Source of the DNA: a virus
Taxonomy: Duplodnaviria > Heunggongvirae > Uroviricota > Caudoviricetes
IMG/VR virus record: IMGVR_UViG_2606217106_000010
Location: 1-14,981 of that record
Length of the DNA: 14,981 nucleotides
Reading direction: 5' to 3' (one strand)
Of this stretch, positions 1-14,981 are shown in pieces (the first letter of the stretch is position 1; every line of letters begins with the position of its first letter). A program made the position numbers and the translations under genes. Under the pieces are notes generated by a model. The model saw only the letters and a list, made by a program, of their open reading frames with translations, searched no databases and was not told the DNA's origin.

Positions 1-472
1 TACGTCACTTAAAAAACTCAGGCCGCAGTCGGTAACCTCGCGCATACAGCCGGGCAGTGACGTCATCGTCTGCGCGGAAATGGACGAACAGTGGGGCTAT
101 GTCGGGGCTAAATCGCGCCAGCGCTGGCTGTTTTACGCGTATGACAGGCTCCGGAAGACGGTTGTTGCGCACGTATTCGGTGAACGCACTATGGCGACGC
201 TGGGGCGTCTTATGAGCCTGCTGTCACCCTTTGACGTGGTGATATGGATGACGGATGGCTGGCCGCTGTATGAATCCCGCCTGAAGGGAAAGCTGCACGT
301 AATCAGCAAGCGATATACGCAGCGAATTGAGCGGCATAACCTGAATCTGAGGCAGCACCTGGCACGGCTGGGACGGAAGTCGCTGTCGTTCTCAAAATCG
401 GTGGAGCTGCATGACAAAGTCATCGGGCATTATCTGAACATAAAACACTATCAATAAGTTGGAGTCATTACC
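1..472 (+). mobile_element. IS1 insertion sequence, right-hand ~470 bp; the rest lies left of the window
   Basis: Sequence ends with the characteristic IS1 terminus ...CAATAAGTTGGAGTCATTACC at 451-472, and the internal ORF is InsB. The element is cut by the window edge, so its completeness cannot be judged. Confidence 0.9.
2..457 (+). CDS. insB: IS1 transposase InsB, C-terminal portion (5' partial at window edge)
   Basis: The frame is open from nt 2 and translates ...[48 protein letters not shown]...[15 protein letters not shown], matching IS1 InsB as I recall it. The provided ORF 80..457 is the internal-Met part of this frame. Confidence 0.9.
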
Positions 473-516
473 GGAAGCTAATTCTGATATTAGCGATCCC
501 ATGTATTATTGGTTTT

Positions 517-1887
517 ATGCCAGCTCCGGCAGGATTAAGCGAACTGGCGTGGGTGCTTTTTGGTATTTACCTGGCGGCCATTGTGGGGCTGGTTATCAAG
601 CCTTTCCCGGAACCTGTCGTACTGTTAATTGCCGTTGCTGCCTCAATGGTGGTGGTCGGTAACTTATCCGACGGTGCGTTTAAAACCACCGCCGTATTAA
701 GCGGTTACTCTTCAGGTACCACCTGGCTGGTGTTCTCGGCGTTTACCTTAAGCGCCGCATTTGTGACCACCGGTTTAGGTAAACGTATTGCCTATCTGCT
801 GATTGGTAAAATCGGTAACACCACGCTGGGTCTGGGTTACGTTACGGTATTCCTCGATCTGGTACTGGCTCCGGCAACACCGTCTAACACCGCGCGTGCG
901 GGCGGCATTGTGTTACCGATCATCAACAGCGTGGCGGTGGCTTTGGGGTCCGAACCGGAAAAAAGTCCGCGTCGTGTCGGACATTACCTGATGATGTCCA
1001 TTTACATGGTCACCAAAACCACCAGCTATATGTTCTTTACCGCAATGGCGGGGAACATTCTGGCGCTGAAAATGATCAACGACATTCTGCACCTGCAAAT
1101 TAGCTGGGGTGGATGGGCGCTGGCAGCCGGATTGCCGGGCATCATTATGCTGCTGGTCACCCCGCTGGTGATTTACACCATGTATCCACCAGAAATTAAG
1201 AAGGTGGATAACAAAACCATCGCTAAAGCGGGCCTTGCCGAACTAGGACCGATGAAAATCCGCGAAAAAATGCTGCTCGGTGTCTTTGTGCTGGCGCTGC
1301 TGGGCTGGATTTTCAGTAAGTCTCTGGGGGTTGATGAATCCACCGTGGCAATCGTTGTTATGGCAACCATGCTGCTGCTGGGTATCGTTACCTGGGAAGA
1401 CGTGGTTAAAAATAAAGGCGGCTGGAATACCTTAATCTGGTACGGCGGTATTATCGGCTTAAGCTCCTTATTATCGAAAGTTAAATTCTTCGAATGGTTA
1501 GCTGAAGTCTTTAAAAATAACCTGGCATTTGATGGTCACGGTAACGTTGCTTTCTTCGTTATTATTTTCCTCAGCATTATCGTGCGTTATTTCTTCGCTT
1601 CCGGTAGTGCCTATATCGTTGCTATGTTACCGGTATTTGCCATGCTGGCGAACGTCTCCGGCGCACCGTTAATGTTAACCGCGCTGGCACTGTTGTTCTC
1701 CAACTCCTATGGCGGCATGGTTACTCACTATGGCGGCGCGGCAGGTCCGGTCATCTTTGGCGTGGGTTATAACGATATTAAATCCTGGTGGTTGGTCGGT
1801 GCGGTACTGACGATATTAACCTTCCTGGTGCATATCACCCTCGGCGTGTGGTGGTGGAATATGCTGATCGGCTGGAACATGCTGTAA
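517..1887 (+). CDS. ybhI: DASS-family (divalent anion:Na+ symporter-like) inner-membrane transporter YbhI; the N-terminus may be truncated by the upstream IS1
   Basis: 456-aa ORF, highly hydrophobic with many predicted TM segments, matching E. coli YbhI in sequence and in its position before ybhJ/ybhC. No ATG/GTG/TTG exists in frame between the upstream stop (412-414) and 517. The in-frame upstream codons 472-516 encode a hydrophobic stretch (RKLILILAIPCIIGF) that looks like coding sequence running into the IS1 end. Confidence 0.85.
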   Translation: MPAPAGLSELAWVLFGIYLAAIVGLVIKPFPEPVVLLIAVAASMVVVGNLSDGAFKTTAVLSGYSSGTTWLVFSAFTLSAAFVTTGLGKRIAYLLIGKIGNTTLGLGYVTVFLDLVLAPATPSNTARAGGIVLPIINSVAVALGSEPEKSPRRVGHYLMMSIYMVTKTTSYMFFTAMAGNILALKMINDILHLQISWGGWALAAGLPGIIMLLVTPLVIYTMYPPEIKKVDNKTIAKAGLAELGPMKIREKMLLGVFVLALLGWIFSKSLGVDESTVAIVVMATMLLLGIVTWEDVVKNKGGWNTLIWYGGIIGLSSLLSKVKFFEWLAEVFKNNLAFDGHGNVAFFVIIFLSIIVRYFFASGSAYIVAMLPVFAMLANVSGAPLMLTALALLFSNSYGGMVTHYGGAAGPVIFGVGYNDIKSWWLVGAVLTILTFLVHITLGVWWWNMLIGWNML

Positions 1888-2069
1888 ATATTCTCGTCAT
1901 ACTTCAAGTTGCATGTGCTGCGTCTGCGTTCGCTCACCCCAGTCACTTACTTATGTAAGCTCCTGGGGATTCACTCGCTTGTCGCCTTCCTGCAACTCGA
2001 ATTATTTAGAGTATATCCATTTATTATCTTTCTGCGCACTTCACGGTGCGCAGATATCTGGAGCATTTG

Positions 2070-4331
2070 ATGATCAAGTTATCTGAAAAAGGCGTGTTTC
2101 TCGCCAGTAATAACGAAATAATTGCCGAAGAACATTTCACCGGCGAAATTAAAAAAGAAGAAGCCAAAAAAGGCACTATTGCCTGGTCTATTCTCTCTTC
2201 GCATAATACGTCCGGAAATATGGATAAACTTAAAATTAAGTTTGATTCATTAGCCTCTCACGATATTACCTTTGTTGGTATTGTACAGACCGCTAAAGCG
2301 TCCGGTATGGAACGTTTCCCGCTGCCGTATGTGCTGACCAACTGCCATAACTCACTCTGCGCCGTCGGCGGCACTATTAACGGTGATGACCATGTTTTTG
2401 GTTTATCGGCGGCCCAGCGTTATGGCGGTATTTTTGTGCCTCCGCATATTGCGGTCATCCATCAATATATGCGTGAGATGATGGCAGGCGGCGGCAAAAT
2501 GATCCTCGGGTCAGACAGCCACACCCGTTACGGTGCATTAGGGACAATGGCAGTCGGTGAGGGCGGCGGTGAGTTGGTAAAACAGCTGCTTAATGACACC
2601 TGGGATATCGACTATCCGGGCGTGGTTGCGGTGCATCTGACCGGAAAACCTGCGCCGTATGTGGGGCCACAGGATGTGGCGCTGGCTATCATTGGCGCGG
2701 TGTTCAAAAACGGTTACGTCAAAAACAAAGTCATGGAGTTCGTTGGACCGGGCGTTAGCGCGCTCTCTACCGATTTCCGTAACAGCGTTGACGTGATGAC
2801 CACTGAAACGACCTGTTTAAGTTCTGTCTGGCAAACCGATGAAGAAGTCCATAACTGGCTGGCGCTGCACGGTCGCGGCCAGGATTACTGCCAGCTTAAC
2901 CCTCAACCGATGGCGTACTACGATGGCTGCATCAGCGTTGATTTAAGCGCCATCAAACCAATGATTGCGCTGCCGTTCCACCCGAGCAACGTGTATGAAA
3001 TCGACACACTGAACCAGAACCTGACCGACATTCTGCGTGAGATTGAAATTGAGTCCGAACGCGTGGCGCACGGTAAAGCCAAACTCTCGCTGCTGGATAA
3101 AGTGGAAAATGGTCGCCTGAAAGTGCAGCAGGGGATTATCGCGGGCTGTTCTGGCGGTAACTACGAAAACGTCATCGCGGCGGCGAATGCACTGCGCGGT
3201 CAATCCTGTGGCAATGACACCTTCTCGCTGGCAGTTTACCCGTCATCACAGCCGGTGTTTATGGATCTCGCCAAAAAAGGTGTGGTAGCAGATTTGATTG
3301 GCGCAGGCGCAATCATCAGAACCGCGTTCTGCGGCCCATGCTTTGGCGCGGGCGATACGCCAATCAACAACGGTTTGAGTATTCGCCACACCACGCGTAA
3401 CTTCCCGAACCGCGAAGGCTCTAAGCCAGCTAATGGGCAGATGTCAGCGGTGGCGTTGATGGACGCTCGTTCTATCGCTGCGACTGCGGCAAACGGTGGC
3501 TATTTAACCTCTGCCAGCGAACTTGATTGCTGGGACAACGTGCCGGAGTACGCCTTCGATGTAACGCCGTATAAAAACCGTGTTTATCAGGGCTTTGTGA
3601 AAGGGGCAACTCAGCAACCGCTGATTTACGGGCCGAACATTAAAGACTGGCCGGAATTGGGTGCGCTGACTGACAATATCGTCCTGAAAGTGTGCTCGAA
3701 GATCCTCGACGAAGTGACCACCACCGACGAACTGATTCCTTCCGGTGAAACCTCTTCTTATCGTTCAAATCCGATTGGTCTGGCGGAGTTTACCCTGTCT
3801 CGCCGCGATCCCGGTTATGTTAGCAGAAGTAAAGCGACTGCTGAGCTGGAAAATCAGCGTCTGGCGGGGAATGTCAGCGAGCTGACAGAGGTGTTTGCGC
3901 GCATTAAGCAGATTGCTGGTCAGGAGCATATTGATCCGCTGCAAACTGAAATTGGCAGCATGGTCTATGCGGTGAAACCAGGCGATGGTTCTGCGCGTGA
4001 ACAGGCGGCGAGCTGCCAGCGTGTGATTGGCGGTCTGGCGAATATTGCCGAGGAGTACGCGACTAAACGCTATCGTTCTAACGTCATCAACTGGGGGATG
4101 TTACCGCTGCAAATGGCGGAAGTACCAACCTTTGAAGTGGGGGATTACATTTACATCCCTGGCATTAAAGCGGCGCTGGATAATCCGGGTACGACGTTTA
4201 AAGGTTATGTGATCCATGAAGATGCGCCGGTAACGGAAATTACGCTCTATATGGAAAGTCTGACTGCTGAAGAGCGCGAGATTATCAAGGCGGGTAGTTT
4301 GATTAACTTCAATAAAAACCGTCAGATGTAA
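2070..4331 (+). CDS. ybhJ: Aconitase-family protein YbhJ
   Basis: The provided ORF starts at GTG 2046, but the in-frame ATG at 2070 ([11 protein letters not shown]...) gives 753 aa, the length I recall for E. coli YbhJ. The protein has aconitase-like glycine-rich and Cys-containing regions and the expected position between ybhI and ybhC. Confidence 0.88.
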
Positions 4332-4344
4332 AAAGCGCCATGTG

Positions 4345-4552
<208 letters not shown>

Positions 4553-4564
4553 AGTTAATTGCTC

Positions 4565-5848
4565 TTACTTCTTCGCCTCTGCAACCACTTTACTACCCAC
4601 GCCGCGGTTATTGTATTCCCACATGCGGTTGTAGTTAGTGTCATTCAGATTGCGCTGTATTTCGTCGTTATCATCTACGCTGCCGGTATTACCCGCAAAC
4701 GGACGATTAGAGATCACCGCATCGGCCCACGGTTTAGCCGTGTTAAAACCTTCGTTGATGGCGCTATCACGGATCACCACCTGACCGTTGGTATTGGCAT
4801 CAACATCCAGCGAGCGGCCCAGTTGCGCCACACCATCACCGAAAGCATTGAAACGGCTGTTTACGGCGAGGAAACCGTAGTAAATGTTGGACAGCGTAGC
4901 CGGTGCAAACACATACGCTTCTTGCTGAGTACGTGAGTTCACCACGCGGAATTCGGTGTTATCGAACACCACTGCGCCGCGACCAGAAACGATATCCACA
5001 TCCCCTTCAATGTAGCTGTTGGTCACCAGCGTACGCGGCTGACGATTTGTTTCCAGACGGTTCTGCACACCGCTGTTGGTGACAAAGAAGGTGTTCTGAC
5101 GACCGAGAATGTTAACGTTGTTAATCTGTACCTGGTCACCATCAGTACGCAGTGCCACCGCCGGATGGTTACCTGCATCTACGCTATCGCCCAGCGTGTT
5201 TTCGATGGTCAGATTTTGCAGTTGCAGGCCATTGTTTTGTGACCAGAAGACCGCAGAGCAGAGAACACCGATACTGTCGCTGCGTTTGCTCTGGCAGCTA
5301 TCGTACATATACCACGCTGGTTTACCTGGCATATATTTGCCGCGCGGGTTGACGTCGTGACGCCAGTCGGCAGGGCTCATGCCACCATCAAGGGAAAGCC
5401 CAATCTTCACATCAATCGGTTTTTCACCTGTACCGTACAGAGTAATTCCACCCGGAGCGGCAGGGACATATACCGTTCCCTGATACTCACCAGGCATCAC
5501 GGCAATATACTGGCGCTTGTTGGTACGCTTGATAATTGCCGCATCTACCGCCGCCTGAATCGTGGTATGCGTTACACCTTGAGTGCCCGCCGGGCCGACA
5601 ACAAAGTCAGGTTGCGCAGGCAGGGTAATCGGGGAAGGATTCCACGCTGCAGCACCTGGTGTCAGGGATGCAAAATAGTGTTGAGCATCGAAATTCTGCG
5701 CTTCTTTTGCCGACAGAATCGGGCGAGAAGAGGTACCAGGCGCGGTTTGATCAGAAGGACGTTGATCGGGCGGGGTTGAGCTACAGGCGGTCAGCGTCAC
5801 GCCAAAAGCCAATGCCAGCGCCAGACGGGAAACTGAAAATGTGTTCAC
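4565..5848 (-). CDS. ybhC: Outer-membrane lipoprotein YbhC (pectinesterase-family fold; putative acyl-CoA thioesterase)
   Basis: 427-aa ORF with a lipoprotein signal peptide and lipobox (MNTFSVSRLALALAFGVTLTAC...). It is the last host gene before attB-lambda in E. coli, and its length matches YbhC. Confidence 0.9.
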   Translation of the reverse strand: MNTFSVSRLALALAFGVTLTACSSTPPDQRPSDQTAPGTSSRPILSAKEAQNFDAQHYFASLTPGAAAWNPSPITLPAQPDFVVGPAGTQGVTHTTIQAAVDAAIIKRTNKRQYIAVMPGEYQGTVYVPAAPGGITLYGTGEKPIDVKIGLSLDGGMSPADWRHDVNPRGKYMPGKPAWYMYDSCQSKRSDSIGVLCSAVFWSQNNGLQLQNLTIENTLGDSVDAGNHPAVALRTDGDQVQINNVNILGRQNTFFVTNSGVQNRLETNRQPRTLVTNSYIEGDVDIVSGRGAVVFDNTEFRVVNSRTQQEAYVFAPATLSNIYYGFLAVNSRFNAFGDGVAQLGRSLDVDANTNGQVVIRDSAINEGFNTAKPWADAVISNRPFAGNTGSVDDNDEIQRNLNDTNYNRMWEYNNRGVGSKVVAEAKK

Positions 5849-5879
5849 AGGTTGCTCCGGGCTATGAAATAGAAAAATG

Positions 5880-5982
5880 AATCCGTTGAAGCCTGCTTTT
5901 TTATACTAAGTTGGCATTATAAAAAAGCATTGCTTATCAATTTGTTGCAACGAACAGGTCACTATCAGTCAAAATAAAATCA
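5880..5982. other. Lambda-type attL (bacterial arm, 15-bp common core, phage P-prime arm with Int arm-type and IHF sites)
   Basis: Core GCTTTTTTATACTAA at 5895-5909 is preceded by host sequence TGAAGCCT and followed by GTTGGCATTATAAAAAAGCATTGCTTATCAATTTGTTGCAACGAACAGGTCACTATCAGTCAAAATAAAATCATTATTTGATTTCAATTTTGTCCCACTCCC, which is the lambda attP P-prime arm as I recall it. Confidence 0.92.
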
Positions 5983-7053
5983 TTATTTGATTTCAATTTT
6001 GTCCCACTCCCTGCCTCTGTCATCACGATACTGTGATGCCATGGTGTCCGACTTATGCCCGAGAAGATGTTGAGCAAATTTATCGCTTATCTGCTTCTCA
6101 TAGAGTCTTGCAGACAAACTGCGCAACTCGTGAAAGGTTGGCGGATCCCCTTCGAAGGAGAGACCTGATGCTTTTCGTGCGCGCATAAAATACCTTGATA
6201 CTGTGCCGGATGAAAGCGGTTCACGACGAGTAGATGCAATTATGGTTTCTCCGCCAAGAATCTTTTTGCATTTATCAAGTGTTTCCTTCATTGATATCCC
6301 GAGAGCATCAACATGCAATGTTGTTGGGATGGCAATTTTTACGCCTGTTTTGCTTTGCTCGACATAAAGATATCCATCTACGATATCAGACCACTTCATT
6401 TCGCATAAATCACCAACTCGCTGCCCGGTAACAACAGCCAGTTCCATTGCAAGTCTAAGCCAACATGGTGATGATTCTGCTGCTTGATAAATTTTCAGGT
6501 ATTCGTCAGCCGTAAGTCTTGATCTCCTTACCTCTGATTTTGCAGCGCGAGTGGCTGCGACCGGGTTTGTTGTTATATGGCCTTCAGCCATAGCCTCTCG
6601 GAATGCATCGCTCAGTGTTGATCTGATTAACTTGGCTGATGCCGCCTTTCCCTCGTCTATGTATCCATTGAGCATTGCCGCAATTTCTTTTGTGGTGATG
6701 TCTTCAAGTGGAGCATCAGGCAGACCCCTCCTTATTGCTTTAATTTTGCTCATGTAATTTATGAGTGTCTTCTGCTTGATTCCTCTGCTGGCCAGGATTT
6801 TTTCGTAGCGATCAAGCCATGAATGTAACGTAACGGAATTATCACTGTTGATTCTCGCTGTCAGAGGCTTGTGTTTGTGTCCTGAAAATAACTCAATGTT
6901 GGCCTGTATAGCTTCAGTGATTGCGATTCGCCTGTCTCGGCCTAATCCAAACTCTTTACCCGTCCTTGGGTCCCTGTAGCAGTAATATCCATTGTTTCTT
7001 ATATAAAGGTTAGGGGGTAAATCCCGGCGCTCATGACTTCGCCTTCTTCCCAT
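5983..7053 (-). CDS. int: Phage lambda-type integrase (tyrosine recombinase)
   Basis: 356-aa ORF MGRRRSHERRDLPPNLYIRNNGYYCYRDPRTGKEF...HLLGHKSDTMASQYRDDRGREWDKIEIK, near-identical to lambda Int by recollection. It sits directly against the P-prime arm of attL, as in a lambda lysogen. Confidence 0.96.
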   Translation of the reverse strand: MGRRRSHERRDLPPNLYIRNNGYYCYRDPRTGKEFGLGRDRRIAITEAIQANIELFSGHKHKPLTARINSDNSVTLHSWLDRYEKILASRGIKQKTLINYMSKIKAIRRGLPDAPLEDITTKEIAAMLNGYIDEGKAASAKLIRSTLSDAFREAMAEGHITTNPVAATRAAKSEVRRSRLTADEYLKIYQAAESSPCWLRLAMELAVVTGQRVGDLCEMKWSDIVDGYLYVEQSKTGVKIAIPTTLHVDALGISMKETLDKCKKILGGETIIASTRREPLSSGTVSRYFMRARKASGLSFEGDPPTFHELRSLSARLYEKQISDKFAQHLLGHKSDTMASQYRDDRGREWDKIEIK

Positions 7054-7145
7054 TTCTGATCCTCTTCAAAAGGCTACCTGTTACTGGTCGATTTAAGTCA
7101 ACCTTTACCGCTGATTCGTGGAACAGATATTCTCTTCCATCCTTA
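7031..7145 (-). pseudogene. xis: xis remnant: only the C-terminal ~37 codons of lambda-type excisionase remain
   Basis: The reverse strand encodes ...KDGREYLFHESAVKVDLNRPVTGSLLKRIRNGKKAKS* and overlaps the int start as in lambda. Lambda-like sequence ends near 7145/7146, with no upstream xis start codon or N-terminal coding sequence. Confidence 0.75.
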
Positions 7146-7155
7146 TATAACCAGG

Positions 7156-7336
7156 TGAATCATTTGATACCGACAAGGGTTTTAGTGAAAGGAGGTGAAA
7201 TCACCTGTAAGATACTGAAATAAAACAGGTGATGGCTAGATGTGCGGATAAGGTCTATTTGATACCGATTGTGCAATAATTAGTCATTTATTATAAAATC
7301 GGCAACTCATTTGATACTGTGGTTTTAGTCTTTTAA
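7156..7336 (+). repeat. Putative left end (attL) of a Mu-like transposable prophage with three direct transposase-binding-site-like repeats
   Basis: CATTTGATACCG at 7161-7172, TATTTGATACCG at 7256-7267 and CATTTGATACTG at 7308-7319 are direct repeats; repeats 1 and 3 are each followed by GGTTTTAGT. Spacing of ~95 and ~52 bp resembles Mu L1-L2-L3. A candidate terminal 5'-TG lies at 7156-7157. Confidence 0.55.
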
Positions 7337-7377
7337 GGCGTTCCAAACAATGCGAAATACTCGATATAGTGCAAAAT

Positions 7378-7406
7378 GCGGGCTAATGCTATTAACCCGC
7401 TTTTGG
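7378..7406 (-). terminator. Possible hairpin terminator overlapping the 3' end of the repressor gene
   Basis: GCGGG (7378-7382) and CCCGC (7396-7400) form a 5-bp stem with a 13-nt loop, flanked by a T/A-rich run on either strand. The stem is short. Confidence 0.3.
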
Positions 7407-7937
7407 TTCTACCGCGTTAGATTTGCGACTTCTCTCAGTTTCTTCCAAAATCTCTCTGACGCGTTCGTCAGACATACCTTCAAGCTGTAATGCAGCTATT
7501 CTTTTCCTTCCTTCTAAGCGGATTAGATCTTGATTTTCAGGCTCTAACAACCGAGCTAAGTACTTGGCTCCATTCAGAACCAAATTTTTCGATAGCTGCT
7601 CTAAGTCTTTTTCATCAAGTGCGCTGATAATCGTCATAATTATCTTCTTGCTTTCATCTTGATTTTCCTTGATCTCACAACGATTCACTTGTGATGCATC
7701 ACTGAATCCACATAGCCACTCAACACTTACTCCTTCGATAGACGCAATCTGAAGGGCGACACTTAAGGATGGCTCAGTGCCACGAGACAGATAATTGTTT
7801 AGTGTTGAAAATGAAAGCCCCCAATCTCTTGCTGCAGCTCTGACGCTGCGGGAGCCAATCAGCCTTTTCAGACGCTCAGCAATGCTTTCTTTTCTACCAC
7901 CAGGAAAAGAAAGAGATGTTGTTGTTTGCTTGTTCAT
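7392..7937 (-). CDS. Prophage repressor with Cro/CI-type HTH, in the position and orientation of Mu c
   Basis: 181-aa ORF divergent from ner. The N-terminal region (IAERLKRLIGSRSVRAAARDWGLSFSTLNNYLSRGTEPSLSVALQIASIEGVSVEWL) has the pattern of an XRE/CI-family HTH. There is no obvious S24 peptidase domain. Confidence 0.7.
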   Translation of the reverse strand: MNKQTTTSLSFPGGRKESIAERLKRLIGSRSVRAAARDWGLSFSTLNNYLSRGTEPSLSVALQIASIEGVSVEWLCGFSDASQVNRCEIKENQDESKKIIMTIISALDEKDLEQLSKNLVLNGAKYLARLLEPENQDLIRLEGRKRIAALQLEGMSDERVREILEETERSRKSNAVEPKAG

Positions 7938-8121
7938 TTTCTTTTCTTCCTATCAATTTGAAATTATTAACTTTTAGTGTTGTCAGCAACCATTGATCCA
8001 CAATAGACAAAAGAAAGATGTTTTTTTGCTTTACATGAAGCAGAAGTGGATCAATACTTATATCAAATTTGATAACTAAGTTTAGTTATCAAATTTCGTA
8101 ACTTTTTAGGATAGATGAATC
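7938..8121. promoter_or_regulatory. Divergent promoter/operator region between the repressor and ner
   Basis: AT-rich 184-bp intergenic region containing a 14-bp perfect palindrome TATCAAATTTGATA (8061-8074), a further half-site copy TTATCAAATTT (8086-8096), and a 10-bp inverted repeat ATTGATCCAC (7993-8002) / GTGGATCAAT (8046-8055). Confidence 0.5.
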
Positions 8122-8352
8122 ATGGCGAGAAATGAAGTTAAGCCTGATTGGCATCCTCAAAGAATTTTGGGGGAAGTCAGAGCCAGAGAAGGAAGCATGA
8201 GGGCGCTGGCCCGTAAAGCTGGCGTGGGTCAGAACAATCTGTACAACGCGGTATACCGCCATGTTCCCAAGTATGAGGGGATTATCGCGGAATGCCTGGG
8301 GGTGCCGCCCGAGGAGATTTGGCCCAGCCGCTACATTCGTAAGGTCGCGTAA
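8122..8352 (+). CDS. ner: Ner-like DNA-binding protein (Mu Ner / Nlp family)
   Basis: 76-aa ORF containing the motif EEIWPSRY (cf. Mu Ner ...PEVIWPSRY) and a KPDWHPQRILG N-terminus resembling Mu Ner. It is the first gene of the rightward operon and sits immediately before the transposase gene. Confidence 0.85.
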   Translation: MARNEVKPDWHPQRILGEVRAREGSMRALARKAGVGQNNLYNAVYRHVPKYEGIIAECLGVPPEEIWPSRYIRKVA

Positions 8353-8354
8353 TT

Positions 8355-10442
8355 ATGTTTGCTTCAGTCAAAGAACTGGTTGGATTACCGGGGATGCCGG
8401 GAACGGAGCAAGGCGTTCGCTATTCAATCAGGAAGTATGCAACCAGCGAAACCAGCAGACGCCGCAAGAAAGGCGCTAAAGGTTTTGAATACAGCATTGA
8501 CTGTTTACCTGAAGTGACACAGCAGGCATTACGCGAACGTTATGCCCTGCAACTGATGACGCAAAAAGCCGATGAATCACCGGCTCCGGTGGTGACAAAG
8601 GCCAGACGCTCGTCTGCCGTGGTTGATGCGGTGGAGGCATATCGCGGATCACCACAACTGATGGTCGAACGCCTCAATGCCCTGACTGAAAACCAGCGCC
8701 AGGTGGCAGACGCACGCATTGCGATCGTCAGTGAGGTGCTGAAATTCACGCAACAACCCGGTTTCAGCTGCGCTAAAGCTATCCGGTTCATCGTTGACCG
8801 CCTGTCACACTCGCAACTGGATGAGCGCATTGTGGCAATGGTTGAGATAGCGAACGCCAGAAAGGGAAACAGTCGCGTGTTGAGTGAAATCACGCTGAAA
8901 CGCTGGATTGCGGCCTTTAATAAGGCACAGAACGCTGCTGAACGCCTGCTTTTGCTGGCACCAGGTAAACGCCAGGAAATAAAAGCCGAAGATATTAACT
9001 GGTTGCCCGAATTTCTGGCGCAGTATCGCCAGTCAAACGGCCGACCAATGACCGAGGCTTACGAGGATTTTGTTGCCGAATGGCAGCACCGGCACGCTGA
9101 TGAGCCTTATATGCTCGATATCATGCCGTCTTATGACACCATTCGCCGCGCAATGAAGAAACTGCCGGAAGTGGTGAAACAAAAAGGACGGGTTACCGGC
9201 AGTGAATACCGCCAGCTTGAGGGATTCACGCGCCGCGACTGGTCAAAAATGCCGGTGAATTATGTCTGGATTGGTGACGGTCACGGCATGAAGCTGAAAT
9301 GCGCGCACCCGGTTCACGGGCGGCCATTCGCACCGGAAGTGACCTTTGTTATCGACGGTGGCACGCGCTTTGTGGTGGGCTGGAGCCTTGACCTGGCTGA
9401 AAATGTTTTCGCCGTAGCCGGTGCCATACAGCACGGTATTCGCCATCATGGCAAACCGTTTCTGTATTACTCGGATAATGGCTCCGGGGAAACCGCCGAC
9501 GTCCTGGATAAGGAGATTGTGGGGATACTGCCACGACTGGGGATTAATCACCCGACAGGGATTGCCGGTAATCCGCAGGGACGGGGCATTATCGAACGGC
9601 TTAACCGCACATTACCGATGCGCATAGCCCGTAAATACCGCACCTATTTCGGGAAAGGAGCAGATCGCGAGACGTTACGTAAAACCAACCGCGATTTACG
9701 CTCGGCATTCAGTGCCCTGCAACAGGGCAAACGGCTGAACGCCCGGCAGCAGTCAGCGATGCGTGATTTACCGTCCTGGTCTGAACTGATTGATGCCATT
9801 CGTGACGGTGTTGAGTGGTACAACAACCGGCCGCACGATGAATTACCCATGAAGCCGAACGGTAAACATTACAGCCCGGCGGAGTTCAGAAAAAAACGCC
9901 TGGCGGAAGAGGACACGGAAATTGAATGGCTGTCCGATGTTGAACTGCGGGATATGTTCCGGCCGATGGTGGAGCGCCCTGTAAGACGCTGTGAAATACG
10001 CTGGCTGAATAATATTTACTACGCGCCCGAGCTGCGTGACGAGCATGGCCGTAAGGTACTTATCAGCTATGACATTCATGATGCCGAACGAATTACCGTG
10101 CGCCGCCCGGATGGCAGCGTGATTTGCGAGGCGGTATGGGACGGCAATAAACGCGAAGCCTTCCCTGTCAGCGCGGAATACTACAAACAGCAGCAGCGCC
10201 TTAAAGGCATGCGTAAACGCGCAGAGGAAAAAATCCGTGATGCCGAGGATGAGGTTGTCAACGTGCTGGAGCACAAGCCGCAGGAGCCCTGGCTGGAAAA
10301 CATATACCGCCCTGTGGGTAATACGGTGACCGTTCAGCAACCGGTCGCTGACGATGAACCTGATGAAGAATACGAGCGTAATTTCCAGCGGGGATTGCAA
10401 CTGCTCGAAGCGAAATTAAAAGAAAGTGATCCGCTGGCCTGA
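8355..10442 (+). CDS. MuA-family DDE transposase (transposable-phage transposase A)
   Basis: 695-aa ORF. Its N-terminus resembles the MuA enhancer-binding domain (cf. Mu MELWVSPKECANLPGLPKTSAGV...GVKGGKAIEY versus here ...GLPGMPGTEQGV...GAKGFEYS). The catalytic-core region VWIGDGHGMK...ILGWSLDLAEN parallels Mu WINGDGY...ILGWRCDVSEN. It is followed by a B-like gene. Confidence 0.92.
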   Translation: MFASVKELVGLPGMPGTEQGVRYSIRKYATSETSRRRKKGAKGFEYSIDCLPEVTQQALRERYALQLMTQKADESPAPVVTKARRSSAVVDAVEAYRGSPQLMVERLNALTENQRQVADARIAIVSEVLKFTQQPGFSCAKAIRFIVDRLSHSQLDERIVAMVEIANARKGNSRVLSEITLKRWIAAFNKAQNAAERLLLLAPGKRQEIKAEDINWLPEFLAQYRQSNGRPMTEAYEDFVAEWQHRHADEPYMLDIMPSYDTIRRAMKKLPEVVKQKGRVTGSEYRQLEGFTRRDWSKMPVNYVWIGDGHGMKLKCAHPVHGRPFAPEVTFVIDGGTRFVVGWSLDLAENVFAVAGAIQHGIRHHGKPFLYYSDNGSGETADVLDKEIVGILPRLGINHPTGIAGNPQGRGIIERLNRTLPMRIARKYRTYFGKGADRETLRKTNRDLRSAFSALQQGKRLNARQQSAMRDLPSWSELIDAIRDGVEWYNNRPHDELPMKPNGKHYSPAEFRKKRLAEEDTEIEWLSDVELRDMFRPMVERPVRRCEIRWLNNIYYAPELRDEHGRKVLISYDIHDAERITVRRPDGSVICEAVWDGNKREAFPVSAEYYKQQQRLKGMRKRAEEKIRDAEDEVVNVLEHKPQEPWLENIYRPVGNTVTVQQPVADDEPDEEYERNFQRGLQLLEAKLKESDPLA

Positions 10443-10524
10443 AATAAAAAAATAACCCGAGGGGTGACTCAGGTTATTTGAGGTTTCAGTCTCGGAGAAT
10501 GCTGTCTCAAGCGAGGTGAATAAT

Positions 10525-11457
10525 ATGACCGATATTAACGATGTAATCAAGACCATTGATGAACTTATTGATGGCGGCGTACTGACGCAGTATGCCATCG
10601 CCAGAGAGGCGGGAATTTCCGACGGCACATTATCGGCTTTCCGTAAGGGAAAATATAAAGGCGATAACGCTGCTGTGGCTGCTTCCCTGCGCTCCTGGTA
10701 TGAGAACTGGAATAAACAAAGCGCACTGCCGGAACCGCCGCAGTTTGTGGAAACTCAGACAGTCCAGGAGCTGCGCGCACTGTTTCAGGCGGTTCGCCTG
10801 ATGGGCTGTATTAACGTTATTGTGGGCGTACCGGGTGTGGGTAAAACGGCCACTGCCCGTAATTACTGCCAGGAGCAACCAAACACCTGGATGATCACCC
10901 TGTCACCCGCGCACTCCAGCGTCACGGAGTGTCTGCTGGAGCTGGCCGATGCGCTGGGGATTGATTACACCCGCGCGAACAAAGGGGCATTATCCCGCGC
11001 CATCCGCCGTCGCCTGATGGGAACGCGTGGACTGGTGATTGTGGATGAGGCGGATCATCTTGGTATTGACGGTCTGGAGCAACTCCGGGCAATTCAGGAC
11101 GCCACGGGGATCGGGATGGTGCTTATTGGTAACCCGCGCGGATTGTTTAAAGGTGGACGCCGCGCCTTTGATGATTTATCGCGCCTGTTCAGCCGTCTTG
11201 CCCGTACAAAACAACTTCGCAAGGCCAAAAAGGCGGATGTGCTGGCCATTGCCAGGGCATGGGGTATCAGTGGTGAGGCCGAGCTGGCCGTCATGCAGGC
11301 TATCGCTGAAAAGCCGGGAGCGTTACGCGTTCTGACACATACGCTTAACCAGGCGTGGCTCACCGCCAGCGGTGAAGGCGCGGCGCTGACAGAAAAACAT
11401 ATTAATGCGGCCTTTAAAGAGGTTTATACCAACCCTGAATTACTCTCACAGGTGTGA
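10525..11457 (+). CDS. MuB-family AAA+ ATPase / target DNA activator
   Basis: The provided ORF starts at GTG 10516; the ATG at 10525 with a GAGGTG RBS upstream is the more likely start. Walker A VGVPGVGKT and Walker B LVIVDEADHL are present. Strong resemblance to Mu B (PEPPRFVETQTV..., QKPGALR...). Confidence 0.9.
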   Translation: MTDINDVIKTIDELIDGGVLTQYAIAREAGISDGTLSAFRKGKYKGDNAAVAASLRSWYENWNKQSALPEPPQFVETQTVQELRALFQAVRLMGCINVIVGVPGVGKTATARNYCQEQPNTWMITLSPAHSSVTECLLELADALGIDYTRANKGALSRAIRRRLMGTRGLVIVDEADHLGIDGLEQLRAIQDATGIGMVLIGNPRGLFKGGRRAFDDLSRLFSRLARTKQLRKAKKADVLAIARAWGISGEAELAVMQAIAEKPGALRVLTHTLNQAWLTASGEGAALTEKHINAAFKEVYTNPELLSQV

Positions 11458-11459
11458 TT

Positions 11460-11681
11460 ATGGTGATATTTAATATTCCTGATATTTACGGACGCTTTCA
11501 CCTGGTGAATTTCGATAACGTCAAAGCAGTCTCCGTGTCTGACAGTGAAGAATGTGGCGATTTACTTTTTGAATTTAATGATCGCACCAGAATGGCAATA
11601 TCGGCAGGACTTGATCGTGAAGGTGCGAAAGAAGCTTACAGCAATATTTGTCGTTTTATCGGTGCAAAACGAATCAGCTAA
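11460..11681 (+). CDS. Hypothetical small early protein (positional equivalent of Mu kil)
   Basis: 73-aa ORF starting at an ATG that overlaps the end of the B gene (a GTG at 11454 is an alternative start). It has the same orientation as the early operon. No recognisable motif. Confidence 0.5.
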   Translation: MVIFNIPDIYGRFHLVNFDNVKAVSVSDSEECGDLLFEFNDRTRMAISAGLDREGAKEAYSNICRFIGAKRIS

Positions 11682-11693
11682 ACGAGGTGTTAT

Positions 11694-11948
11694 ATGAATA
11701 TGCAATCCTGCGGTAACAAAATGAATTTATTCGACTCCCTGAACAGCGCGCGCCGTCTGACCGAACTTGCCGGTGCGGTACTGGAACGCAGTAAGCGCTA
11801 CCCACAACGTTTTGCACTGAAAACCACGCCGCCGGTAGGCAACGTGCAGGGAACCGGTGAAATTGAAATCACCATACAGACCAACGGCCTGCGCCGCCGT
11901 GTGAAGGCCACCCGCATAAGCGGATGCACGGTTTACTGGGAGGTGTGA
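11694..11948 (+). CDS. Hypothetical early-region protein
   Basis: 84-aa ORF with a GAGGTG RBS 5 nt upstream, tightly packed in the operon. Function unknown. Confidence 0.5.
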   Translation: MNMQSCGNKMNLFDSLNSARRLTELAGAVLERSKRYPQRFALKTTPPVGNVQGTGEIEITIQTNGLRRRVKATRISGCTVYWEV

Positions 11949-11949
11949 G

Positions 11950-12231
11950 ATGAAACGAAATCTGATTGCGTGGGCGTGGTCGAGCGGTCTCATTGAGTTT
12001 GGTTACGTCCTGCCGGAAGGTGCATTGCCGATAGTTGCCGGAAAGCCTGCCACAGTACGGCATGTGATTGAGGTTATGGCGCGTCATGGACGTGATGAAC
12101 AGGAGCAGTTACTGGTTCCGGGGATACCGGAAGCGGTGACGGAGGAAGAAGCCTTTAATGCCATGATTCGGTTCTGCCGTGAGGTCAGACGCCGGGTCAG
12201 TTATCCAAACAGAACGAGGACCAGAGGATGA
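11950..12231 (+). CDS. Hypothetical early-region protein
   Basis: 93-aa ORF with a GGAGGTG RBS. It starts 2 nt after the previous stop and overlaps the next start (ATGA). Function unknown. Confidence 0.55.
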   Translation: MKRNLIAWAWSSGLIEFGYVLPEGALPIVAGKPATVRHVIEVMARHGRDEQEQLLVPGIPEAVTEEEAFNAMIRFCREVRRRVSYPNRTRTRG

Positions 12232-12500
12232 GTAAAGTTGTACGCATTATTTTCGAATACAAGGAGCACGTTATCCATAAAAACGCTGATGAAACAGTGC
12301 ACATGGGGGTAAGTCTGGGCATACGTTCAACCGGGATAAAGCAGAAAGGTGATGGACCCGCCATGATTTTTGGGGTGGTTATGCTCGCGGAAAGCAGAGA
12401 CTTTGCTGAACTTGTGGCAATGAAAGCCAGAGCGCTCATGAAAGATATGAACATGAGTTCCGGGGTTATTAAAGGTAATGAATTTAATCAGCAGGGGTAA
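12228..12500 (+). CDS. Hypothetical early-region protein, paralog A (N-terminus MSKVVRIIFEYKEHV)
   Basis: 90-aa ORF whose start overlaps the upstream stop (ATGA). Its N-terminus is shared with the next ORF. Confidence 0.55.
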   Translation: MSKVVRIIFEYKEHVIHKNADETVHMGVSLGIRSTGIKQKGDGPAMIFGVVMLAESRDFAELVAMKARALMKDMNMSSGVIKGNEFNQQG

Positions 12501-12504
12501 TTCC

Positions 12505-12798
12505 ATGAGCAAAGTACGCGTTATTTTTGAATTTGAGCATGTTTCGCATGACGAAAAGCTGGCAGGCAATGACTGTGTTGAAGTGCATGAAAAGATTGGT
12601 GTGGATGTGAAAACAGAACGTGATACGGAGAACAGCCCGACGTCACTCTGTGATGTTTATGCAAGTATTCTCCAGTATCACAGTCCTGCAATTATTCATT
12701 TCCTCTCAGCGGAATTTCAGGCATCTGCACAGGATTTTGGAGCGGATGCCATCATTAAACGCCACCGCGTGCATAAAGCATCAGGCACACTGCAATAA
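12505..12798 (+). CDS. Hypothetical early-region protein, paralog B (N-terminus MSKVRVIFEFEHV)
   Basis: The provided ORF starts at 12478; the ATG at 12505 has a better RBS (AGGGG) and gives the N-terminus MSKVRVIFEFEHVSH, which parallels the preceding gene. Confidence 0.55.
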   Translation: MSKVRVIFEFEHVSHDEKLAGNDCVEVHEKIGVDVKTERDTENSPTSLCDVYASILQYHSPAIIHFLSAEFQASAQDFGADAIIKRHRVHKASGTLQ

Positions 12799-12809
12799 GG
12801 AAAAACAAA

Positions 12810-13340
12810 ATGGCTAAACGCGTTACAAAATTAAAGGCCGCAGCCGAGGCCGCACCACAGACCCGCGAAGAAGTCAGCCGCGATATCCGACGCTTTGGGG
12901 ATATGCAGCGTGAGGCGCTGCGCCTGGAAACAGCGATGAATGACGAAGTGGCAGAAATTACCGCCCGTTATACGCCGCAGATTGAAAACCTTAAAAAAGA
13001 AATCAAAGTGCTTTTTAAAGGGATTCAGGACTGGTGTAAAACCAACCGCAATGAGCTGACGAACGGCGGTGAAACCAAAACAGCCAATCTGACCACCGGA
13101 ACGGTGTCATGGCGGCTGGGAACGCCATCATGCAGCGTCAGCCGTGATGTGGAAGGCGTGATTGAAATGCTGCGCCGTATGGGCCTTGAGCGCTTCATCC
13201 GCACGAAAGAGGAAGTGAATAAGCAAGCTGTCCTGGCGGAGCCGGATGCGGTGAAAGACATTGCCGGTATTAAGGTGAATAAAGGCGCTGAAAGTTTTTA
13301 TGTCGAGCCTTTTGAACAGGACGCCGGACTGAACAAATAA
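12810..13340 (+). CDS. gam: Gam-like host-nuclease inhibitor / DNA-end-binding protein (Mu Gam family)
   Basis: 176-aa ORF resembling Mu Gam along its length by recollection: LQREALRLETAMNDEVAEITARY..., NRNELTNGGETKTANLTTGTVSWR..., RFIRTKEEVNKQAVLAEP..., PFEQDAG. Confidence 0.88.
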   Translation: MAKRVTKLKAAAEAAPQTREEVSRDIRRFGDMQREALRLETAMNDEVAEITARYTPQIENLKKEIKVLFKGIQDWCKTNRNELTNGGETKTANLTTGTVSWRLGTPSCSVSRDVEGVIEMLRRMGLERFIRTKEEVNKQAVLAEPDAVKDIAGIKVNKGAESFYVEPFEQDAGLNK

Positions 13341-13437
13341 CACCGCATTAAATCTTTAAATATCACTTCATTTTAATTATGGCGCTCGCGTCAGGGGACT
13401 GCCTGCGCCTGTAAACTGAAAATAAGGAACAGGAAAT

Positions 13438-13980
13438 ATGGCATATTTTTATTTCAAATTAGACTGTGTGCAGACAAATAAATATTTCACCAAATATCAA
13501 CAGACTGTTTTACCGCTACGCAACAGTATTCTTCGGGCGTTACTGAAAAATACAGGCGCTACCGGATTGCGCTTAAAGCCGTTCGCCATGGACGTAATCA
13601 GTGAGTTTTATTTTTCCGGTGCTCTGCCTGCGGGCTGGTGTAAGCGCGATGATGTGGCTTTTATCGGTGGTGGACAGTGCTTTATAGCCAGACCTGATGA
13701 GTCATGCCCTGAAGGAGCGGCGATTGCCGCAATGATTGAAGCCGCTGAACGCGAGTTAAGAAAGCGTCCTGATTTCCTTGTCTGGCTCTGTGAAAAGCTG
13801 GGGGTAATGAGAATCCCCTCCATGTTTAACACAGACTCCTGGTGGACCCCGTCTCTCTCCCGTGATGCCCTGTGCGTGGTGTTTAAAGTAGGTGCTTATG
13901 GCAGGGAAATAAACGGGCGTATTCCTGAAGAATGTCAGGAAATTAAACATTCTGAATATGTGGCGCTGACGGAGGAATAA
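13438..13980 (+). CDS. Hypothetical protein (late part of Mu-like early region)
   Basis: 180-aa ORF with an AAGGA RBS, preceded by a 97-bp AT-rich gap after gam. No recognisable motif; it contains several Cys residues without a clear zinc-finger spacing. Confidence 0.55.
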   Translation: MAYFYFKLDCVQTNKYFTKYQQTVLPLRNSILRALLKNTGATGLRLKPFAMDVISEFYFSGALPAGWCKRDDVAFIGGGQCFIARPDESCPEGAAIAAMIEAAERELRKRPDFLVWLCEKLGVMRIPSMFNTDSWWTPSLSRDALCVVFKVGAYGREINGRIPEECQEIKHSEYVALTEE

Positions 13981-13983
13981 TTC

Positions 13984-14517
13984 ATGATAGATGCAAAAGT
14001 GCTTGAAGGGGTTAAAAACTGGCTGAGCATTTACGGGCGTCTGACCTGCGGCGTTCTGGCTCAAAGAATGAATATGCCGCCATCCTCGATGGTCTATTTT
14101 CTGCGTGATGCGGTTGATGCCGGTGTGCTGACAGAATGTAACGGTTTTTATGATATTCCGCGTCCCCGCCCGGTACAGCCGGTTCGTCGCAAATGCCGCC
14201 AGGAGTCTGTGGCTGATGATGTTCAGTGGTGCAGCTTCAGAAAATCCCTGCCGTGGGTTGAAGGGCATGATATTCCGTCGATGGCGTGGGAATTTGCGCA
14301 GGGCGTTCTGACCTGTGAAACCGTTTATGTGGTGGCTGAAGTTGATGAGCAGGCAATGAAAGAAGGTGTGCCCCAGTTTGTGATGGCGTATATCGACATT
14401 CGCCTGGGGACCATTATCTGCGGTTTAAGCGGCTGGAATATCACCGAACATGTTCTGCGTTACCTGATTGTTGACCGGACGGCAGCGCCTGCCGGGATAT
14501 CTGCGGAGGTGGCGTAA
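13984..14517 (+). CDS. Hypothetical protein, possibly with an N-terminal winged-helix-like domain
   Basis: 177-aa ORF with a GGAGGA RBS, starting 3 nt after the previous stop. Residues ~15-50 (IYGRLTCGVLAQRMNMPPSSMVYFLRDAVDAGVL) resemble a winged-HTH pattern; this is inference only. Confidence 0.5.
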   Translation: MIDAKVLEGVKNWLSIYGRLTCGVLAQRMNMPPSSMVYFLRDAVDAGVLTECNGFYDIPRPRPVQPVRRKCRQESVADDVQWCSFRKSLPWVEGHDIPSMAWEFAQGVLTCETVYVVAEVDEQAMKEGVPQFVMAYIDIRLGTIICGLSGWNITEHVLRYLIVDRTAAPAGISAEVA

Positions 14518-14979
14518 TGTTCTTTAAAACATCGAACCCTTCCGCGCTGGCTGCGTGGCAAAAATATCAGCAGGACTGCCAGCAAGTTAAGGATGAGGCA
14601 AAACGCCTTGAGGCCGTGCTGAATGTTGAGTGCCGGTCGGTATTTGTATCCGGTATCAGCGGTTTTTGTTTTAAGGGGCTGCGTTTTACGAATGACAAAT
14701 ATCCTTTTCATCGTGATTTATGGCGAAAACCGACTGCGTCGAATGGCTGGAGCTGCACGCCGCGCACATCGCGCATTCCCAAAGCCCTGCGCACTGCCTC
14801 TGACGAACTGAACAGTCTGTGGCGTGAATATTCGCCCGTCACGTATGCCAGAACCGATGCCCTGTTGTTCTGGCTGGGCATTGATTTCTCAGCAATCCTG
14901 TATGGCCCTGTGGAGTGGTTCTGCGTTGACGATGTGATTTATCTTCAGTGCGGTGTAAAACCCGCAAATCAGAAAATGA
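14518..14979 (+). CDS. Hypothetical protein, 3' partial (runs off window end)
   Basis: An ATG at 14518 immediately follows the previous stop (TAATG). The frame stays open for 154 codons to the window edge (MFFKTSNPSALAAWQKYQQDCQQVKDEAKRLEAVL...). It is absent from the supplied ORF list, probably because it has no stop codon within the window. Confidence 0.45.
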
Positions 14980-14981
14980 CC

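Follow-up and report, generated by a model that had tools for sequence, protein, structure and literature searches.

The subject of this work is a block of five small open reading frames (ORFs) between genes B and gam of a Mu-like prophage of Escherichia coli. The block occupies positions 11460-12798 of a DNA stretch of 14,981 nucleotides (IMG/VR virus record IMGVR_UViG_2606217106_000010, positions 1 to 14,981), which as a whole is called the window below. The five ORFs and the two genes that flank them are as follows:

10516..11457, plus strand: transposition ATPase B (Pfam Phage-MuB_C, E 2.5e-25, and AAA_22), ending 2 nt upstream of ORF1
11460-11681, plus strand: ORF1, 73 aa
11694-11948, plus strand: ORF2, 84 aa
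11950-12231, plus strand: ORF3, 93 aa
12228-12500, plus strand: ORF4, 90 aa
12505-12798, plus strand: ORF5, 97 aa
12810..13340, plus strand: gam (Pfam Phage_Mu_Gam, E 2.6e-40), starting 11 nt past ORF5, with further early genes beyond

Five small early genes between B and gam

By profile and sequence comparison the ORFs can be assigned with high confidence: ORF2 is a relative of Mu Kil, ORF3 is a domain linked to Gam, ORF4 and ORF5 are a tandem pair of the Mu gp7 superfamily and ORF1 is a conserved early protein of unassigned function. The block as a whole is best explained as the promoter-proximal part of the semi-essential early (SE/SEE) region of a Mu-like E. coli prophage of the Sp18 type, named after the copy in E. 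coli O157:H7 Sakai that is annotated as "prophage Sp18, Mu-like phage". It would be transcribed together with ner, A and B from the early promoter, and its five genes would be translated in succession. We consider this explanation as a whole to be probable, the O-antigen function proposed below for ORF4 and ORF5 being less certain.

The distances between successive genes from B to gam are 2, 12, 1, -4 (an ATGA overlap), 4 and 11 nt, and no plus-strand promoter or terminator signals were found inside the block, where their counts did not exceed the expectation from shuffled sequence. Both the coordinates and the gaps agree with the earlier note on this DNA, which had described five packed ORFs of 73-97 aa with stops and starts overlapping or lying a few nucleotides apart. 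The same note ascribed a ribosome-binding site to each ORF. A clear Shine-Dalgarno sequence does precede four of them (AGGTG, GAGGTG, GGAGGTG and (G)AGGA), but that of ORF5 is weak (AGGGG only). From the spacing together with the signs of selection given below we infer that the five ORFs are translated and translationally coupled.

Ratios of nonsynonymous to synonymous divergence (dN/dS) were calculated by the Nei-Gojobori method in the called frames, pairwise among five diverged copies; the ranges omit near-identical copies differing by fewer than ~15 substitutions. The ratio is 0.06-0.18 for ORF2, ~0.2 for ORF3, 0.15-0.29 for ORF1, 0.25-0.44 for ORF4 and 0.28-0.42 for ORF5, to be compared with 0.03-0.06 for B (close alleles) and 0.01-0.10 for gam. 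It is below 1 for all five ORFs in every informative comparison, while synonymous divergence reaches 0.4-1.1, and therefore the ORFs are taken to be real genes under purifying selection. ORF1, ORF4 and ORF5 evolve at the protein level several times faster than the core genes (dN/dS in ORF4 and ORF5 is higher than in B and gam by a factor of 3-5), and their GC content is 0.40-0.45 versus 0.52-0.55 in the neighbours. The block is thus predicted to consist of real early genes for five small soluble proteins of 8-11 kDa.

It might be argued that the prophage is domesticated and that some of the ORFs, decaying or no longer translated, are left over without a current function. Frameshifted ORF5 and truncated ORF4 variants do occur (P0047, P0056, P0058, P0036 and P0037), about one third of the examined copies lack ORF3, one genome has lost the entire block to an IS1 element and the dN/dS values of ORF1, ORF4 and ORF5 are above those of the core genes. 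Nevertheless, all five values are well below 1 at the synonymous divergence given above, the NCBI pipeline calls the identical five genes, intact and each named "hypothetical protein", in ~230 E. coli genomes, and distant phages have kept homologues in an unchanged order. Decay is very improbable in view of these facts.

Searches of Pfam, NCBIfam and PDB sequences gave no match for any of the five ORFs. Word-indexed protein searches returned solely E. coli relatives with at least 70% identity and are of little use for distant homology. The assignments made here come from PHROG families, profile comparison and gene order, and they replace the statement of the earlier note that none of the ORFs could be assigned.

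ORF2 (pI 10.3) is predicted to be a Kil-family protein related to Mu Kil (gp5, AAF01084). It matches phrog_2679 ('Kil') with E 6.6e-46 and phrog_2743, the family of Mu Kil, with E 9e-4; in the reverse test Mu Kil matches phrog_2743 with E 1e-42 and phrog_2679 with E 9e-5. In BLASTP the two proteins are 33% identical over the C-terminal 39 aa (E 6e-6), where they have a common motif R..R(I/L)(S/N)GC.(V/I).W. Both are small basic early proteins (Mu Kil has 74 aa and pI 10.2) with a conserved C-terminal half, encoded just past B. They differ in the N-terminal half, which is unrelated, and in position, since Mu kil is the first gene after B and ORF2 is the second. In many relatives kil is found immediately past B, and the order B-kil-ORF3 is present in 25 of 31 MuB-containing loci. 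The start of the gene is ambiguous: the ATG at 11694 (84 aa) has a strong ribosome-binding site in the window, the alternative being 11721. In the copies that carry a gp8-like gene Kil begins at an internal Met (76 aa, MNLFDS...), and the Kil PHROG profile begins at residue 6 of ORF2.

Expression of Mu kil leads to spherical cells, according to a passage of PMC3961180 that cites Waggoner et al. 1989. By analogy, the ORF2 protein may damage the control of cell shape or division of the host. The PHROG label "septation inhibition" derives from unrelated kil genes and clashes with the spherical-cell phenotype of Mu kil.

ORF1 (GC 0.40) most probably encodes a conserved early protein, acidic (pI 5.2) and soluble, which belongs to phrog_3375 (E 1.2e-40) and has no functional assignment. 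Its homologues with ~50% identity occupy the same slot after B in the distant Mu-like contigs L077-L079, and two allele types exist, ~74% identical to each other. The family profile gave no match in PDB and Pfam, and no relative was found in Mu.

Five genes are likewise found between B and gam of Mu, namely kil, gp6, gp7, gp8 and gp9. Comparison of the five ORFs with them by BLASTP gave the ORF2-Kil pair as the single match, with no match for Mu gp6, gp8 and gp9, so that the block does not appear to be simply the gene set of Mu. Transposable phages are described as having in their SE/SEE region a long series of small early genes, little conserved and mostly unassigned (PMC8705779, PMC3820752), and a block of this kind is therefore already known. 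It resembles this region in having short, poorly conserved genes between B and the middle operon, including kil and gam (PMC8705779, PMC3820752). There is no difference in kind, the Sp18-type set overlapping in part with the kil-gp6-gp7-gp8-gp9 set of Mu. No study of the Sp18 early genes was found in the literature.

The placement of the block in the non-essential (semi-essential) region of the early operon, as given in the earlier note, is thus confirmed, and a role in host interaction is still the best reading of it. The idea of a special cargo is not upheld, since other Mu-like phages have four of the five families, arranged in the same order, and Mu itself has homologues of two. The note had named, as an outcome contrary to its reading, that the ORFs prove to be ordinary conserved Mu early genes with housekeeping roles. 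Because of this recurrence and the two Mu homologues, half of that outcome applies: the genes look like ordinary genes of the SE region, two of them with Mu counterparts (kil and E6), but they are not housekeeping genes.

The region is mosaic and undergoes recombination. Of the 38 ORF4-containing viral contigs that cover the position of ORF3, 25 have it and 13 do not; nine of these 13 have a Mu gp8-like gene (phrog_3690) in the interval from ORF1 to kil. The gp8-like gene is found only in variant prophage copies. Deletion of ORF3 leaves a 74-nt scar (L005, L007), and the scar produces an artificial N-terminal extension of ORF4 in the ORF3-less copies. ORF5 exists as two alleles with 56% identity: allele a, the window type, in 206 genomes, and allele b in 32 genomes as well as in loci L004 and L005. 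The a/b types of ORF1 assort independently of those of ORF5. P0043 has recombined between the two ORF5 alleles, and in P0059 ORF4 and ORF5 are fused. The strain names of the hit tables gave no sign that the allele of ORF5 goes with the serogroup, both alleles being present in O157:H7.

Other exchanges were observed around the block. The gene just past gam (13438-13980; phrog_2260, weak DUF5420 match) is swapped in other prophage copies for a 192-aa DUF5420 protein with 23% identity (L005 4205-4783), which makes it another swapped cassette. In L006 (5937-6634, E. coli HCP4S3_I4) IS1A lies directly past B and the block from ORF1 onward is missing.

The ORF4-ORF5 pair and Mu gp7

ORF4 (pI 9.1) and ORF5 (pI 5.7) encode a basic and an acidic protein, both predicted to be soluble, that match different PHROG families: phrog_4107 (E 7e-58) and phrog_2230 (E 4e-37), respectively. 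The start of ORF5 at 12505, not at 12478, is backed by the N-terminal homology and by the NCBI gene call. The earlier note had seen in the two ORFs N-terminal paralogues that then diverge. The comparison supports paralogy, but points to an origin in common along the full length. In the window pair 12 of the 17 N-terminal residues are identical (Smith-Waterman z 4.3, a score reached by 10 of 2,000 shuffles), past residue 17 the similarity is at noise level (z = -0.2), and hhalign aligns the N-terminal 33 columns (79-82% probability, E 1e-5). With allele b of ORF5 the similarity extends to about 85 residues: ORF4 is 27% identical to it over 86 colinear aa (z 11.4), and z is still 3.8-4.7 after removal of the first 20 residues (score reached by 2-14 of 2,000 shuffles). 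An iterative hidden Markov model (HMM) search seeded with ORF4 among 7,609 ORFs of the fetched loci detects the window ORF5 with E 1e-14 and no decoy. It collects 146 sequences, which are the ORF4 and ORF5 families plus two bridge proteins described below.

The common N-terminus could instead be a local effect, such as gene conversion, a recombination junction or an mRNA-level constraint imposed by coupled initiation. The end of the window similarity after 17 residues and the 33 columns of hhalign would fit this, as would the ~80% identity of the first 45 aligned nt and the demonstrably recombinogenic nature of the region. However, a local effect is improbable given the colinear similarity of ORF4 to allele b, which persists without the N-terminus, and the union of the two families by the iterative search with zero decoys. 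Furthermore, the motif M[SA]KV..I.E. is kept at the protein level in distant members with diverged DNA (L077, L081 and Mu gp7), and the predicted order of secondary-structure elements is equal in ORF4 and ORF5. The AlphaFold models of both, of low confidence (pLDDT 56 and 58), have a hairpin at 4-19, 24-39, followed by a helix; a Foldseek search of BFVD with these low-confidence models gave no match at E <=1e-3.

A search of 1.84 billion representative proteins with the ORF4-family HMM found its own family only, and ORF4 therefore seems to be restricted to this phage lineage. The ORF5 family is broader. Contigs L077-L080 have the order B, ORF1-family gene, kil, ORF3, ORF5-family gene, i.e. one member of the pair only. 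ORF4, which was found together with ORF5 in all 39 ORF4-selected loci reaching that far, may have arisen by duplication in place or been imported by recombination.

A relationship of the pair to Mu gp7 was first suspected from the N-termini. Direct pairwise comparison of gp7 with ORF4 and ORF5 is not significant (Smith-Waterman z <=2.1), and the link therefore rests on two bridge proteins and on profile methods. The bridges are proteins of 85 aa encoded in the same early region of viral contigs L081 and L087. Both belong to phrog_2230 (E 3e-15 and 2e-14, respectively), and their sole other PHROG matches are phrog_10252 (E 1e-3 and 1.4e-2) and phrog_4107 (E 2.7e-3 and 8e-2). Conversely, the one secondary match of Mu gp7 among 38,880 PHROG families is phrog_2230 (E 9e-3, full length). 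Comparison of gp7 with L081 and L087 gives z 11.2, or 6.3-6.6 without the first 10 residues, and the three-way alignment is almost gapless. L081 in turn gives z 6.9 with ORF5 allele b and z 6.0 with ORF4; the identity of ORF4 and ORF5 to the bridges is only 25-28%. The iterative search seeded with ORF4 picks up L081 (E 4e-5), L087 and then the entire ORF5 family, with Mu gp7 as the only further scorer (E 5.6e-3), and hhalign aligns the superfamily profile with gp7 over 79 columns (E 1.2e-4). A scan of viral contigs with an alignment of gp7 and the bridges gave no new bridging sequences, and no match to the L081 protein was obtained by tblastn among sequenced phages.

ORF4 and ORF5 very probably belong to one superfamily with Mu gp7, also known as E6 or Gnarl2. 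Apart from the full-length colinear homology via the bridges and profiles, the proteins are alike in size (87 aa in gp7, 90 and 97 aa here), in being soluble and in the N-terminal strand M[SA]KV..I.E., and all members of the superfamily occupy the slot between kil and gam. The differences are in the PHROG family (10252 in Mu versus 4107 and 2230 here) and in the copy number: Mu has a single gp7, while here there are two tandem copies of opposite charge.

Mu gp7 (E6, Mup07; NP_050611.1, NC_000929:4784-5047) is gnarl2 (orf63) of Silas et al. (Nat Commun 2025, PMC12373910). It comes from a screen of accessory genes; its expression increases T5 infection 1e5- to 1e6-fold in two wild strains of E. 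coli, ECOR1 and ECOR22 (PMC12373910). It also shifts the O-antigen ladder downward, and the same phenotype results when O-antigen genes are disrupted by transposons (PMC12373910). The authors propose that it is a small non-enzymatic modulator of O-antigen synthesis which serves superinfection exclusion or prevents re-adsorption to debris (PMC12373910). Gnarl3 binds GalU, and gnarl3 is the only one of the three genes linked to a target (PMC12373910). Gnarl1, Gnarl3 and Iap of phage D3 are possible functional analogues, all being small non-enzymatic proteins of the lipopolysaccharide (LPS)/O-antigen pathway (PMC12373910).

By homology to Gnarl2, ORF4 and ORF5 may be non-enzymatic binders of host proteins that perturb O-antigen or LPS synthesis; neither has a match to an enzyme family in Pfam or NCBIfam. 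The surface of the cell would thereby be altered, either in the lysogen or once the prophage is induced. No better hypothesis on the function of the pair is available, but it is a tentative one, rated lower because the divergence from gp7 is high. Several points weigh against it and against the link on which it is built. At 20-28% identity the function need not be conserved, and the O-antigen phenotype was tested for Mu gp7 alone. The effect of Gnarl2 depends on the strain. The direct comparison with gp7 falls short of significance, and hhalign gives a probability of only 55% against the single gp7 sequence. The structure models have low confidence and no fold match, frameshifted copies of ORF5 exist and its allele type has no obvious link to serogroup.

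It is also possible, though less likely than not, that the pair has kept the gp7 fold with changed targets. ORF4 and ORF5 might act on a defence system inside the cell, on a prophage that competes with this one or on each other as a heterodimer, in which case the Gnarl2 phenotype would not be transferred. The gp7 relationship is directly undetectable and the identity to the bridges is low, as stated above. The basic ORF4 and acidic ORF5 would fit different partners or a heterodimer, and so would their co-occurrence in all 39 loci. Both ORF5 alleles are found within one serogroup, O157:H7. The three Gnarl proteins are not described as related and only one of them has a linked target, so that "Gnarl" denotes a phenotype class. 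On the other hand, the sole experimentally characterized member of the superfamily has an O-antigen phenotype, and operon position, size and the N-terminal motif are conserved across the superfamily. An action of ORF4 and ORF5 on the O-antigen pathway is kept as the working hypothesis. Within it, the duplication, the opposite net charge and the dimorphic recombining alleles suggest that target specificity has become diversified over O-antigen pathways that vary greatly in E. coli.

ORF3 and its relation to Gam

ORF3 is predicted to be a free-standing copy of the phrog_1518 domain, which in phage D3112 is fused to the C-terminus of Gam and elsewhere is often found beside it. Gam is a Ku-like protein that binds DNA ends. 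ORF3 matches phrog_1518 (labelled 'host nuclease inhibitor') with E 8.5e-43 over profile positions 10-101 of 103. Its core SGLIEFG...P.GA...G...R...RH...LLVPG(V/I)PEA contains the invariant elements G..LI, RH and LLVPG.PEA. Relatives with 43-50% identity were found by tblastn in 76 phage records, mostly of Pseudomonas transposable phages of the D3112/JBD type, and the family is present in 271 viral contigs.

In the D3112 Gam protein (D3112p13, 266 aa) residues 1-161 are the Gam domain (PF07352 at 19-156), 52% identical to the window Gam. Residues 176-248 are 43% identical to ORF3 over 74 residues (E 8e-19) and have the same core motif. Unlike this C-terminal domain, ORF3 is a separate gene located two genes upstream of gam. 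Long fused proteins form a PHROG of their own (phrog_18351, profile length 298). ORF3 itself was considered as a Gam protein (PF07352) and rejected: it has no Pfam match up to E 1, and its alignment with D3112 Gam is outside the PF07352 region. As ORF3 lacks a match to the Gam domain, the label "host nuclease inhibitor" has to be an annotation transfer from the fusions, and ORF3 should not carry the name of Gam or of a nuclease inhibitor. The family profile gave no match among PDB structures and in Pfam, no relative of ORF3 was found in Mu, and no study of the Gam C-terminal domain was found in the literature.

The family is near Gam in 23 of 59 loci: in one it is fused, and in 22 Gam lies within less than 3 kb. 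In nine of these 22 the two genes are separated by a gap or overlap of at most 19 nt, in either gene order. A functional link of ORF3 to DNA-end handling can be inferred from the fusion and the adjacency. The protein would work with Gam, or with the occupant of its slot, on the ends of phage or host DNA. In a wider reading of low probability, ORF3 would represent a hitherto unrecognized partner domain of Gam-type DNA-end protection, which may be fused, adjacent or free.

Part of the data weighs against this reading. As many as 36 of the 59 loci have no detectable Gam within 3 kb, free copies without Gam are present in the non-Mu Burkholderia phages KL4 and BcepMigl, and ORF3 is dispensable in many E. 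coli copies. ORF3 could then be functionally independent of Gam, its fusion and adjacency reflecting the crowding of small genes in phage early regions. Besides the Gam-less loci and the free copies, such independence would agree with the absence of ORF3 both from Mu and from many gam-containing copies of the Sp18 type, and with the presence of a DUF3164 gene in the position of gam in L077 and L084. It is at odds with the D3112 fusion, with the fused proteins of phrog_18351 and with the nine direct abutments in both gene orders. Moreover, other neighbours of the family are recombination or DNA-end genes as well: in KL4 the relative of ORF3 is near ExoVIII/RecT, and in Stenotrophomonas phage phiSHP3 the domain forms the N-terminus of a longer protein near RdgC. 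We regard independence from Gam as a plausible reading with a somewhat less than even chance, and retain the partnership of ORF3 with Gam as the suggested one.

In the closest non-E. coli relatives the position of gam is taken by DUF3164. The DUF3164 protein encoded there in the related Mu-like phages L077 and L084 (L077 3572-4210 and L084 3571-4188; PF11363, E 6e-79 and 5e-86, respectively), with ORF3-family genes just upstream, may stand in functionally for Gam. A second, weak ORF3-like domain occurs a few hundred bases downstream of the first in Pseudomonas transposable phages (L003 5589-6077, which is D3112 orf15, and L116-L123 at ~3440-3780; HMM E 2e-4 to 5e-7). It is possible that the Gam-linked domain has itself been duplicated there.

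Prophage context and significance

In the window, E. coli chromosomal genes are followed by a lambda-type integrase and then by the Mu-like prophage, whose genes upstream of B, together with the integrase, are:

5983-7053, minus strand: lambda-type integrase, near-lambda int, beside ybhC
7392-7937, minus strand: prophage repressor, followed by ner
8355-10442: transposase A, among the prophage early genes, after ner

The window B and Gam are 48% and 55% identical, respectively, to those of Mu (BLASTP). A scan of genome contigs with Gam gave two distant metagenome-assembled loci only. Of 5,426 complete E. coli genomes, 232-233 contain the stretch with an identity of 87-97%. Many of these are Shiga toxin-producing E. 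coli (STEC), including many O157:H7, O111, O145 and O121 strains. In the phage collection it was seen only as a Mu-like phage inserted into two Shiga toxin (Stx) phages (LC727881 and LC727895). Viral contig L013 is essentially identical to the window.

The Mu-like prophage is inserted into a lambda-type xis gene (window 7037-7146, minus strand). The 3' part of xis, ending in KDGREYLFHESAVKVDLNRPVTGSLLKRIRNGKKAKS and a stop codon, is intact to ~7146, where the sequence switches to phage-end DNA. The near-lambda int and the neighbouring ybhC mark the attB-lambda side. Because the Mu-like prophage interrupts xis, the lambdoid prophage is probably locked in without Xis. LC727881 and LC727895 are annotated with the same arrangement, the Mu-like phage lying within the Stx phage. 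Three copies of ATTTGATAC(C/T)G (7162, 7257 and 7309, plus strand) lie within 160 bp at the left prophage end, with none elsewhere in the window. They are likely end-binding sites L1-L3 of the MuA-type transposase.

Two observations concern the chromosomal part of the window. A partial IS1 insB-type transposase ORF is present at 80-457 beside a gene for a citrate/dicarboxylate-type transporter. At 4340-4520 overlapping ORFs of both strands contain one peptide twice (e.g. RIRCASIASDNKCRM), a sign of tandem repeats of the REP/BIME type between ybhJ and ybhC, which are an ordinary feature of E. coli.

Two points about the block are new, the placing of the tandem pair in the Gnarl2/E6 superfamily and the link of the ORF3 domain to Gam, and both are to be taken as leads. 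A joint reading, in which a tandem Gnarl2-like pair widens the range of O-antigens that can be remodelled and ORF3 acts as a partner domain of Gam, is unlikely to hold in full. In that reading ORF4 and ORF5 might form a heterodimer or hit different targets of the Wzx, Wzy, Wzz or WaaL type.

The ~230 complete E. coli genomes that carry the five "hypothetical" genes can now be given names for three of them (a Kil relative and two Gnarl2/E6-family proteins), and the misleading label "host nuclease inhibitor" of ORF3 can be corrected. The families phrog_2230, phrog_4107 and phrog_10252 would collapse into one superfamily, the single characterized member of which alters O-antigen. The ORF3-Gam fusion points to an unstudied component of DNA-end handling in phages. 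If the function of Gnarl2 carries over to ORF4 and ORF5, Sp18-type prophages could affect O-antigen chain length and phage susceptibility of STEC, and possibly also serotyping or virulence-related surface properties of these bacteria.

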